A stretch of 64,000 nucleotides of DNA from positions 70,308,001-70,372,000 of the forward strand of contig OX597821.1 of the NCBI GenBank assembly GCA_951406725.2, in the 5' to 3' direction. A program made the position numbers and the translations under genes. How positions within the stretch are numbered: the first letter of the stretch is position 1; every line of letters begins with the position of its first letter. Shown here piece after piece: positions 29,824-56,876 of the stretch. The notes under the pieces were generated by a model. That model searched no databases. It was given only the letters and a program-made list of their open reading frames with translations, and was not told the origin of the DNA. This DNA comes from Octopus vulgaris. Taxonomy: Eukaryota.

Positions 29824-30880
29824 ATGGATAATTGTAACACCAGCGAGAAGAATTTTATGCATACAAGAGACGCATCCTTTCAATCTAAAAATGGTGCAAA
29901 TTTAAAAGAGCAAAATAGTTTGAAGAGAACCAACAAAATTACTGAAAAGCATCACTTGAAACCTTATCCTGTTGAAGAGTACTTAACGGCGGAATGTAGT
30001 AAACATCTACAGAATGTACTCAGCTCTAAGACAAAGAAACAAGTAGATATAAATGAAAGACAATATGAAGACAAACATGAGTACAATCTGCTGCAGAGAC
30101 AAAAACAGTCACCATTTTTTTATCCCACCGAAAAGATGCCATCTTTAAGGCAACAGCAAAATACCAAGTCTTGTTTTTTCTCGGGTGGCAGCAATAATGA
30201 AGTCCCTCAGTTTAATAAAGATCACAATCAAGATAGCAATTCCAGCTGCTTATTGCCACAGATTTTACCAAATCACGGCATCCTGCAAAACTTTTCTACA
30301 GATACTAGCTTTTATGAGAAATCTTCTGATTATAACAGTTCTACGCCAGCGCAACATTATATACTGCACTATGCACAAGGGTATCCTCAAAAGAGGCGTC
30401 ATCAACAATCCCAGCACCATCAACGCCACCACCATCACCACAACCACCACCATAACCAACAGCAACATCAGCAGCATCATAAACAACGATACCAACTAAA
30501 GTCTGCGTCGTTGCATAACCATATATTTTATCAAAACTATCTGCAACATCCATCCTTATATGATATCTACAACCGTGATATTTATAAAACTTCAAACTTA
30601 TGTCGATCGTACAAATGCAAGGTCAAAGAACATTTTACATCGAACAAACCTTATCATTTTTCTACATCAAATATAAATCAGAATTCACAGACCAATTCCT
30701 ATAATACTGAAACCGTCCAACGGCTATTACTGGAACAGCAAGAACCGTATTACACTATTTCTTCAGTTCGCGATACGAAAACGAATGTACCGACAGAATA
30801 TTCGGTGAAAAACGATTGTATTCCACTGGCTAAATGGGTAGAACCTACCCATAAGAACTTTCCAAGTGCCAAAGATATGA
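29824..30880 (+). CDS. Gene A first coding exon; His/Gln-rich low-complexity region
   Basis: 357-aa ORF; acceptor ttcctcgtag at 29810; donor A|gtaagt (phase 1); a candidate upstream exon ending 29664 has an in-frame TGA. Confidence 0.85.
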
Positions 30881-33800
30881 GTAAGTATGATGTATAGCTG
30901 ATCATATGAACACTAGTGTGGTAGTACTTATTTTGTCTTATCTATTTTTCGAAATTATAAGGATTTACGATTAAGTCACAGAACATGAATAGCTGTTGAA
31001 GAGACGAAATTATTTGTACAGCTGTAACTTACTTTAAGGTTATATCTATCAAAAATTTTATGAAAATATTTACTGATAAAATTATAAAGTATAAGCAATA
31101 TTGGATCTGATGTTCAAATAAAAAGGACAGTTATACCATATATCTTTCCGTCTTCTCGTATTGCTAGCATTAATTGGTGTGAAAGGATGAATTAGATCAA
31201 ATCGCTGTTTCCGTTCTTATTAAATCGTCCTGGCAAGATACATTCTCCGTCAGAAGATATATCAAACATTCAATTATATTTGTTTCAAGATGAATTTTTC
31301 AGAATGGCAAGAGGAAAAATTCGAGCGTTTGTAAATAAGGCGTAATTTCATTTCTTTCTCCTATAAGGGTAGTAAATACTTGAAATTAGATTGAGTGTAA
31401 TGTTTATAAAGCTGACGACGTTAGCATTTTAAGAATAAAACTTCATAAGTATTTCATATTTTGTAAGTTTGTCCCATTGGTGGTATTTGCACTTTGCTTT
31501 GAGAGTAGAAACAGCGTAAGCCTACTTTGACTCTTTGTAATCCTAATTCTATAAAGTGAAATTCAGATAACAGGAAGTCTAAAATATATTATCGTATACA
31601 ACTGCAGAGACTTTAGTTCCATCACAACAGCCCAAGAAGATATCAAAAGGTTCCAAGCCATTATACTTTGCCCAGAAGGAATCAATAAAAGATGGAATAG
31701 ATATAGCTAAATCTGTGACAGAAGCTATGGTTTCAAGAATGCGTGTGAGTGTGGGGGCGTGTGTGTGTGTGAGCGTGTGTGTGTGGGCGTGCGTGTGTGG
31801 ACGTGTCGTGTGTGTGTGGACGTGTGTGGATGTGTGTAGGTGTGTGGGTGTGTAGATATATGAGGTCTGATCAATAATTCTCCGGACTGTTGCCATAGTA
31901 ACGAAGCTAAAGCACGCAGAGTAAAGCTGCTGAACAAAGATTGAATTTGAACTCTGCTGTGCAAGTGCACTAAGTTTTAATGATCTTGCTCAATTCCAAT
32001 GCTTACAGCAACGCTTGGAAGGAAAGTGTGTAGCGTGTGAACATCACATTAACTATAGCAGAGAAAGTTGTCATGGTGATACCTGCTCAGAGGCCTACGC
32101 AAAGTTGCAGAAAGTGTATGGAGATGAGTGTAGGAGCCACACACAAATGTAAGAGTGGTTCAGACGTTTTCAAGATGGCCGAAAAATGTGGATATTGACG
32201 AACGTTCAGGGAGACCCGCAACCAGCAGAACTGAGAAAAACATCGCAGATGTGCGTACAGCTATGAGGAGAAATCGTTGAATCACCATCCGTGAGTTATC
32301 AGAGGATGTGCAGATTAGTTACGGTTCAGTTCAGTCCATTATCACTGAAGATTTGGTTATGAGACGCGTGTCTGCCAAGTCTGTACCAAAACTGCTTTCA
32401 GCTGACCGAAAAGACTCTCGGGCTTCAGTTGTACAAGATCTCCTTAACTGTGTCGGAAGCGGTGAAATCTTTTTGGAAATTTTGCCTCTGAGCAGATAAC
32501 GCCAAGCTTTTGGCATATTTTGATGCAGATTCTCTGTTCAGTTTTCTCTGTCATAATCATTGCGAGAATCACACAATACACACTTGATTTCCAAGCACTG
32601 ATATAAACAGCGGAAGTGAGCCAGAATATTAAATCATAGGGCGCATGCACGAGTTCAAGGTCAATCTGTGCCTAGCAGCTTTACTCCGGAACCTTATTGA
32701 TCAGACCACGTATATATAGATATACGTATGTATATGTGTGTGTGTATGCGCACGTGTGTGTGTGTGTATGTATGCATGTATGTATGTATGTATGTATATA
32801 TGTATGTATGTATGTATGTATGTATGTATGTATGTATGTATGTATGTATGTATATGTCAGGTCGCTCTTGTGTGTAACCCCTGTACAACCTGTCGGGTCG
32901 TCGGCAACGAATTTTTCTTGCCGCTTCCAGTGATGCAGACTCCCTTTTAAATTCATAGAGCATGCAGTATTTGATGTGGGCTTGATCTCAACTCATTTCC
33001 AAAGACAACATCGTGGACAAGAATTTAACTGCTATGGCATAAAATGATCTGCAATGAAAGTAAAAAATACACGTATACGTATGTATATATGTCTATACAT
33101 ATATTATATATGTTTGTGTATATATATATATATATATATATATATATAGATAGATAGATAGATAGATAGATAGATAGATAGATAGATAGATAGATATACA
33201 TATATGTATATATATATGTGTGTATATATGTATAATATTAAGTAAGAAAATGGAGAGATTTAATGGATATAAATTTATTTACTTATTAACATTGCTTATA
33301 TATACACATATATATATGCATATACATGCATACATACACATATATATGTATGTATATATATATGTGTATATATATATGTATATATATATATATATATATA
33401 TATATATATATATATATATATGCATATATGTATGTATATGTGTATGTATGTGCGTGTGTATATATATATATGTGCATGTATGTATGTATATATGTGTGTG
33501 TGTATAGACCGTAGTTAAACTCTTGGTTCGATAGGGATAGATATACATATGTCTATGTGTATATGTTTCAGTTGAACCATCAGAAGTCTATGGAAATCTA
33601 CTTGAGCCGGGATTTATCTCAAGTCAAACAGTGTCGTCAGGTGTGACAAAGGAAGCAATTGAAGAACCGAAGCTAGATTTTAAGGTATAGTATCCATATT
33701 TGATTGAATGGTAAGAAGTTGATTTAGGTCCCGGCTGTCCTCCTGTGCTCACGAATCTGATGAGGTGTCTGCTTAAAAACAGACAAGAACGGGAAAGAGC

Positions 33801-56200: not shown

Positions 56201-56876
56201 GCAGCAAGAACGGATTAAATATAATGATTGTGAAATTACCTGAAAATTGTTTACATCCGTTTCCATTTCAAGAGTACCAGAAGCATCGGGTCGGCCATCC
56301 TGTTTATTTAATGTTGATAATCTCTGTCCATCTTGTACATGATTGCCGTTAAATTCTGAAAATATAGAAACGTTAATTATTTTATTAACAGGAAATAATT
56401 TACGTATTAAACAAAGACTAACAATAGAAATTATGTATTTAAAGAATAAAATTATTAGCAAAGTACTTACCGTGTGTACTTCCATCAGGAGCCTGGAGTA
56501 CCTTGTTTTGTTGAACAGCAGGCGGAATTGTTTGATATGAGTCCATAGACACTATTGGGGATTGAAGCATTGAATTTGAATTGGTGGTGGTTGATTGCGA
56601 TAAAAGCCATGGTTGCTTTTCATTTTGTCGTTGATAACGGCTTCTTGTATACTGTGCATAATGCGATTGCTGCAAATTCCGATGTTGTAGATATCTTCTG
56701 TTGCCGTTTCCAAAGCCAGATAGGCTACGATGCCCTTGTAAGCAATGTGGCTGCCAACCGTTATTTCTGTAACGATGGTAGTTGTTAAAGTAGGTACCCG
56801 TGTTCGATAATTGATATTCTGGCTGGTTTTCTTTCGCTTCTCCTGTCCAAATATACCTGCTGTTATTTCGGTTCAT
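53296..56876 (-). CDS. PCF11-like: Gene B: PCF11-like protein lacking the CID (8 coding exons, 448 aa)
   Basis: GT-AG exons 56876-56471, 56355-56240, 56080-55847, 55318-55128, 54997-54819, 54652-54567, 53807-53715, 53337-53296 total 1347 nt in frame; LYSEKQCSICG..DHMDAHFREN..RHWYL..CLVCKEKFTEFFNHEDGEWQLDDAIDIDGKTYHEIC. Confidence 0.92.

Follow-up and report, generated by a model that had tools for sequence, protein, structure and literature searches.

PCF11-derived genes without a CID form a cluster in Octopus vulgaris

The described systems closest to the genes treated here are canonical PCF11, a subunit of cleavage factor II (CF II/CF IA), engineered deletion mutants of the human protein, and the Arabidopsis genes PCFS1 and PCFS5. 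Human Pcf11 without residues 1-1123 binds RNA and co-purifies with Clp1 and is inactive in cleavage, and most of the RNA-binding energy of the human protein comes from its two fingers (PMC6239180); the fingers of yeast Pcf11 cross-link to RNA only without Clp1 (PMC5737669). PCFS1 and PCFS5 are lineage-restricted, CID-less paralogs with a zinc finger that exist beside full-length genes; they are intronless, have nonsense and frameshift variants, and have been argued to be pseudogenes (PMC10839035). Here, we analysed a window of 64,000 nucleotides of Octopus vulgaris DNA (assembly GCA_951406725.2, contig OX597821.1, positions 70,308,001 to 70,372,000) containing two PCF11 paralogs, genes A and B, which a preliminary description had presented as a convergent pair. 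The two do lie tail to tail, with the stop of gene A at 46153 and that of gene B at 53296, but they are part of a cluster of seven copies rather than a pair. As judged from their sequences, they are not full PCF11 members, being without the CID (the domain through which PCF11 binds the polymerase), the central region and the equivalent of yeast W489, but PCF11 derivatives. CID-less PCF11 paralogs are already known from Arabidopsis and from beetle database models, and the octopus cluster is a real further variant.

The paralogs share with canonical PCF11 the C2H2 finger, the R-x-W-Y motif, the C2HC (Pcf11_C) finger and the intron positions at the finger exons; they differ from it in lacking the CID, the middle region and the 43-nt exon of W489, and in having a new N-terminus and a repeat. 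With the human mutants (the protein without 1-1123, and a fragment made of finger, Clp1 site and finger) they have in common the retained module, which in the mutants binds RNA, whereas the mutants are engineered and have a complete Clp1 site (PMC6239180). The parallel with PCFS1 and PCFS5 drawn earlier stands as to the missing CID and is otherwise weaker (PMC10839035): unlike those intronless genes, the octopus ones have six or seven coding introns, seven open copies and a ratio of non-synonymous to synonymous rates (dN/dS) of 0.41. Short Pcf11-like database models exist in beetles, namely Aethina tumida XP_049824330.1 (251 aa) and Henosepilachna KAK9886934.1 and KAK9886935.1 (453 aa, adjacent locus tags). 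In a Pfam scan, beetle models P0015 and P0028 have Pcf11_C and no CID, like the octopus paralogs, but the beetle models keep the W489 equivalent, fall outside the octopus clade in a quick tree and may be partial; they suggest that such duplicates recur in animals.

Canonical octopus PCF11 was located as a separate gene of 15 exons and 1791 aa on contig C13 (G000:C13:65173427-65194979); its CID is present, and its model was the sole match among octopus sequences in the CID search. The 2.8-Gb genome gave nine CID matches, none of them on contig C8, to which the window belongs, and the canonical protein, searched by tblastn across 254 kb around the cluster, matched the finger exons and nothing else. 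Because of these two results there is no CID exon upstream for the paralogs to splice onto, and splicing of that kind, raised earlier as a possibility, is ruled out. The introns flanking the finger exons occupy the same positions in the canonical gene and in the paralogs, from which we infer that the paralogs arose by DNA duplication of the 3' part of PCF11. Their finger modules are 32-36% identical to that of canonical octopus PCF11. Exons 2-3 of gene A and exon 4 of gene B match the canonical exons upstream of finger 1 in phase and in nothing else, homology being undetectable in pairwise and profile tests. In the quick tree, made with 55 of 155 sequences, the paralogs form one clade (Shimodaira-Hasegawa-like approximate likelihood ratio support 99).

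Canonical octopus PCF11 also has a block of about 260 aa (L030:7740-9712) made of short repeats with F-D-G-P-like words. The repeat motif has eight matches in the canonical protein vs 0-1 in the paralogs, and the block is without a match in the cluster. It is a possible counterpart of the vertebrate FEGP repeats, and if the two are equated, the paralogs would be without the central region needed for cleavage.

Positions are window coordinates throughout, and those above 64000 continue the same count beyond the window along contig C8. Gene A, on the forward strand, encodes 585 aa in seven coding exons without an internal stop; gene B, on the reverse strand, encodes 448 aa in eight coding exons and is identical to database protein P0007. 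With open frames and GT-AG introns in both, the two genes are intact, as originally proposed.

29824..30880, + strand: gene A coding exon 1, Q/N/S/H/Y-rich N-terminus of 352 aa without a CID (open reading frame; no Pfam match)
33572..33684, + strand: gene A coding exon 2, 113 nt, phase 1 to 0 (AG/GT and frame; in ortholog proteins P0010 and P0012)
35494..35675, + strand: gene A coding exon 3, 182 nt, encoding a W-x-x-Y-K segment peculiar to the family; homologous to exons 3 and 4 of gene B
37855..38033, + strand: gene A 179-nt exon, C2H2 finger and that half of the Clp1 site which contains R-x-W-Y; match to the finger exon of the canonical gene on contig C13
39058..39149, + strand: gene A linker exon; its two acceptors end in AG at 39057 and 39060, a spacing of 3 nt
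45222..45314, + strand: gene A 93-nt exon, first part of the C2HC (Pcf11_C) finger (Pfam zf_PCFS4, E 3.2e-9)
46112..46153, + strand: gene A last coding exon, 42 nt, H-x-x-C and stop; first poly(A)-signal hexamer at 46299
56471..56876, - strand: gene B coding exon 1, Q/N/S/Y-rich N-terminus of 135 aa without a CID
56240..56355, - strand: gene B coding exon 2, 116 nt, phase 1 to 0
55847..56080, - strand: gene B exon 3, 234 nt, with the first of two copies of a repeat specific to the family
55128..55318, - strand: gene B exon 4, 191 nt, with the second of these two repeat copies
54819..54997, - strand: gene B 179-nt exon, C2H2 finger and R-x-W-Y, with nearly all predicted Clp1-interface residues
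54567..54652, - strand: gene B linker exon, 86 nt
53715..53807, - strand: gene B 93-nt exon of the C2HC finger (Pfam zf_PCFS4, E 1.7e-6; matches to PDB 2NAX and 5M9Z)
53296..53337, - strand: gene B last coding exon, 42 nt; poly(A)-signal hexamers at 52740 and 52713

The identical exon sizes (179, 93 and 42 nt) and phases (2|1|0|0 around the last four exons of A and B) were confirmed, as was the strong divergence of the proteins, which are 48% identical over 123 aligned finger-module positions; the 26% found by whole-protein BLASTP refers to the first gene A model, which still contained one extra exon. Exon 3 of gene A aligns with exons 3 and 4 of gene B with a local score of 74, and exons 3 and 4 of gene B align with each other with a score of 89, neither being reached by any of 1000 shuffles; the second alignment reveals an internal duplication, because of which gene B has one more coding exon than gene A. 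Every genome match of gene B exon 4 at E<1 lies inside the cluster, a protein search with residues 175-448 of gene B turned up only O. vulgaris proteins among 338 candidates, and a protein atlas search with the family-specific repeat region was without match.

The family is lineage-specific, as had been supposed, in that named database matches are confined to Octopus. Orthologs of gene A are present in O. bimaculoides and O. sinensis, whose RefSeq models have the same start methionine and exon usage, and the O. bimaculoides protein is identical at 128 of 135 positions in the finger module and 301 of 352 in exon 1. Ortholog isoforms X1 and X2 differ by one residue, at the linker-exon acceptor pair that is also present in the window; as RefSeq isoforms of that type generally rest on transcript data, the pair is a hint, the only one, of expression. 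The ortholog records XP_014781153.1, XP_014781154.1 and XP_036361072.1 are named 'sex-determining region Y protein' or 'myotubularin-related protein-like', names that look wrong and could mislead lists of octopus sex genes.

No CID was found in either protein by the Pfam scan or the genome search, in agreement with the preliminary description; specifically, PF04818 is missing from gene B and from two gene A orthologs. All eight zinc ligands are retained in A and B, and the C2H2 ligands C, C, H, H are present in 9/9 paralog sequences. The attribution to PCF11 held up as well: Pcf11_C (PF21936) scores 35.8 bits in B and 32.7-33.3 in the gene A orthologs against a cut-off of 26.7, and the best solved-structure matches are the Pcf11 C-terminal finger, with the C2HC finger of gene B matching PDB 2NAX at E 4.3e-5. 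For comparison we used 145 homologs, in which zinc-ligand conservation is by construction; five of the 150 listed were left out (two cluster members, two N-terminal-only sequences and one without the finger pattern). Among the Clp1 anchors defined in yeast Pcf11 as R480, W482 and W489 (PMC1761425), the equivalents of the first two, within R-x-W-Y, are kept in all nine paralog sequences. The W489 equivalent of canonical octopus PCF11 lies in an exon of its own, of 43 nt, and this exon is missing in all copies, a point absent from the preliminary description; PF11526 had no match in the paralogs at E 0.01. The L-Y of the pre-finger helix is kept in A, B and H (a diverged copy listed below), the basic stretch after finger 1 has a net charge of +4 to +5, like the canonical one, and the stop follows finger 2 directly. 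The N-termini are 46-50% Q/N/S/Y/H/G.

The cluster spans 114 kb and holds seven intact copies, one frameshifted copy and fragments. The intact genes are A, five young B-type copies (B, C, E, F and G) and the diverged copy H.

80119-76683: copy C, B-type, intact
81100-83123: copy D, 5'-truncated and frameshifted
87126-90662: copy E, B-type, intact
113324-109743: copy F, B-type, intact
114682-118182: copy G, B-type, intact, with a 33-nt in-frame deletion
140377-144107: copy H, diverged, intact
near 59.7k, 65.8k, 95.0k and 98.5k: fragments of cluster copies

The 179-nt exon has nine matches in the genome, eight of them spread over about 105 kb of C8 and the ninth on C13, and genome-wide searches found no copy outside the cluster at E<1 (gene B exon 4 as query) or E<0.1 (gene B exon 1); the copy counts are lower bounds. 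Our models of four cluster genes are identical to database proteins named Octopus vulgaris. Among the database models P0002, P0003 and P0005, that of H is without finger 2 and that of A skips two exons, both being apparently incomplete, and the frameshifted D is annotated as a protein. Further contigs contain exon-1 homologs 66% identical to B (P0013) and 71% identical to H, such that both lineages exist beyond this genome, and two sequencing runs under other organism labels contain B-type DNA, mostly at least 95% alike.

Selection was estimated by the Nei-Gojobori count, which ignores transition bias and so reads low. Between B and H, dS is 0.84, dN 0.35 and dN/dS 0.41 (bootstrap 0.31-0.55, 431 codons), with 0.22 (0.11-0.41) in the finger exons, 0.61 in the N-terminus and 0.37 in the repeat exons. 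The ratio is thus below 1, a check already proposed for these genes, and therefore they are not simple pseudogenes. The five young copies differ by 57 non-synonymous and 31 synonymous changes over 1042 and 269 sites (ratio 0.47, binomial P 0.0013); for gene A vs B or H, dN/dS is saturated. In contigs of the sequencing runs aligned to gene B, 12/12 listed indels fall outside the coding exons.

Clp1 itself is a single gene, with 11/11 matches at one locus on a contig other than C8, and is 98% identical between O. vulgaris and O. bimaculoides. A second locus (G000:C5:128211598-128215837) matches the Clp1 P-loop family and not the Clp1 protein; we presume that it is the related kinase NOL9. A model of residues 312-448 of gene B with octopus Clp1 and two zinc ions scored 0.83, the best control reaching 0.02; the runs had at least 79% of contacts in common and a partner pLDDT (predicted local distance difference test) of at least 67. 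In calibration, the mark was reached by 51/78 solved and 2/108 mismatched pairs (eukaryotes, 71/105 and 2/126). The model, which covers gene B only, has a confident interface in two stretches, residues 315-337, which cover finger 1 and the helix in front of it, and residues 362-370; within this interface, A, B and H all retain L325, Y326, Q330, R337, R365, W367 and Y368. The lowest-error contacts are those of W367 in the C-terminal domain of Clp1, the domain that yeast W482 likewise contacts (PMC1761425). By itself, gene B gave an AlphaFold model with a mean pLDDT of 34, reaching 70-79 only in the C2HC finger. The Clp1 binding first put forward for these proteins is partly supported, in that the gene B model docks and two of three anchors are kept, and is weakened by the third anchor, lost with its exon.

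Our preferred reading, held tentatively and at a little under even chances, is that the paralogs bind both Clp1 and RNA but are unable to support cleavage, and that they act as competitors of full-length PCF11 for the single Clp1. Duplication of the 3' exons of PCF11 would have kept the two-zinc-finger module, now behind a new low-complexity N-terminus. In the products, R-x-W-Y and the helix that precedes finger 1 would make the contact with Clp1, as predicted for gene B, and the products would bind Clp1 and RNA without supporting cleavage, by comparison with the human deletion mutant of the same content. Competition for Clp1 might then leave CF II less active and shift the choice of poly(A) site. 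The module content shared with the human mutant favours the competitor reading. A bolder version, which we consider doubtful, is that of a natural dominant-negative of CF II, in which a still amplifying, Pol II-uncoupled family would sequester the sole Clp1 in some limited tissue, thereby changing the programme of poly(A) site choice or sending the Clp1 kinase elsewhere; by analogy with Drosophila, our guess for such a tissue would be the germ line.

Several observations weigh against the competitor reading. The W489 equivalent is found in 0/9 paralog sequences vs 143/145 other homologs, and the tryptophan of the finger-1 helix, present in 133/145 homologs, is lost in the paralogs. In the calibration of the complex score, close cousins of true partners also passed in 10/12 cases, and the pass of gene B may reflect memory of the solved yeast complex; as that complex is already solved, what the pass demonstrates is likeness rather than binding by B. 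The paralog branch in the quick tree is long (1.5) and leaves the position of the clade open. Exons of B and E are 94-100% identical vs 94-99% for introns, such that constraint among the five young copies seems modest, and one copy (D) is frameshifted and several others are fragments.

The missing W489 exon is also an argument for a different reading, rather unlikely in our estimate, in which the paralogs are Clp1-independent RNA binders, with the fingers kept for RNA or another partner, the Clp1 site decaying, and the N-terminus and repeat conferring a novel role, possibly one linked to granules. Pcf11 fingers bind RNA when isolated, which in yeast requires the absence of Clp1 (PMC5737669, PMC6239180), the basic stretch after finger 1 keeps its charge, and the N-termini are of biased composition, with the new repeat exons constrained (dN/dS 0.37). 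However, R-x-W-Y and the pre-finger helix, that is, the modelled interface, are kept in A, B and H despite a module identity of 48-57%.

If Clp1 is bound, the paralogs could be adaptors rather than decoys, carrying the Clp1 RNA 5'-kinase to substrates outside co-transcriptional 3' processing, a role which we regard as improbable. The predicted Clp1 binding and the RNA-binding fingers without a CID would suit it, and Clp1 remains an active kinase with Pcf11, its kinase activity being dispensable for cleavage (PMC6239180); against this, the genome has no Clp1 paralog.

That the copies are largely non-functional or decaying duplicates, as argued for PCFS1 and PCFS5 (PMC10839035), appears quite improbable. 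The frameshifted D, the four fragments and the weak exon-vs-intron contrast in the young copies fit decay. However, gene A is open and 86-95% identical in O. bimaculoides, the B/H dN/dS interval excludes 1 at a dS of 0.84, the young copies show 57 vs 31 changes (P 0.0013), and all 12 listed indels spare the coding exons. Finally, it is hardly credible that the five B-type copies are an assembly artefact of uncollapsed haplotypes, as their identity of about 95% and long duplicated blocks might suggest, given that five copies in mixed orientations with pairwise dS of 0.02-0.08 are more than two haplotypes and that other sequencing runs give several variant contigs at one position, up to 5.

The flanks of gene B contain two further features.

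57060..57152, - strand: candidate promoter block of the B-type copies, alignable between B, C, E, F, G and H and containing CACGTG, ATTGG and a word resembling GCGCAA
59311..60352, + strand: 3' fragment of a B-type copy in inverted orientation, with an identity to B of about 95% (93-nt exon at 59657-59749, 42-nt exon at 60283-60324)

The candidate promoter block is not clearly more conserved than the short introns. In front of B, C, E, F and H, and also of canonical PCF11 (L029, upstream of 3427), CACGTG is followed after about 20-55 nt by a CCAAT/ATTGG word. Copies F and G, each with its own upstream block, face each other head to head across about 1.36 kb (113324-114682), and the broken copy D starts directly behind the upstream region of copy C, in opposite orientation. 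As read from their arrangement, inverted cluster fragments could in principle be a source of double-stranded RNA. A 128-bp tandem array lies at 60840-62340 (11.7 copies, 90% matches), and related arrays are found near 92.0-93.0k, 95.4-97.1k and 119.6-120.5k, beside duplicated blocks. The stretch 55383-55468, taken for a possible remnant exon, did not stand out from shuffled sequences (439/500). Four of the 21 listed sequencing runs were aligned to gene B. The contigs of run X1, guessed to be RNA, cross the introns and upstream region of gene B with no splice joint; the run behaves as DNA, run X5 gave no contig, and neither has a bearing on expression. No RNA run was seen to contain gene B among those listed.

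In gene A, an acceptor 13 nt before the start codon (29810) and a candidate donor at 29665, which no coding frame joins, suggest a putative untranslated upstream exon. A candidate exon at 31608-31730 was dropped, being without a good in-frame donor and missing from the ortholog proteins. The introns of gene A hold two transposon-like copies in opposite orientation, 78% identical (31935-32686 and 41098-41840), and other long open reading frames across the 254 kb look by eye like repeat fragments.

A search for literature on PCF11 with octopus or cephalopods, or on these accessions, found no paper, subscription papers and most supplements being outside its reach, and the database names of these genes are uninformative or wrong. 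In spermatocytes of Drosophila, higher levels of PCF11 and Clp1 (Cbc) push cleavage to proximal sites, and CF II dosage sets poly(A) site choice (PMC10983978). A selected, amplifying family made of the finger-and-Clp1 module would be a natural way to tune CF II dosage, and it would offer a natural test of what roles beyond cleavage belong to the finger module and to the Clp1 kinase, as well as of the need for W489 in Clp1 binding.

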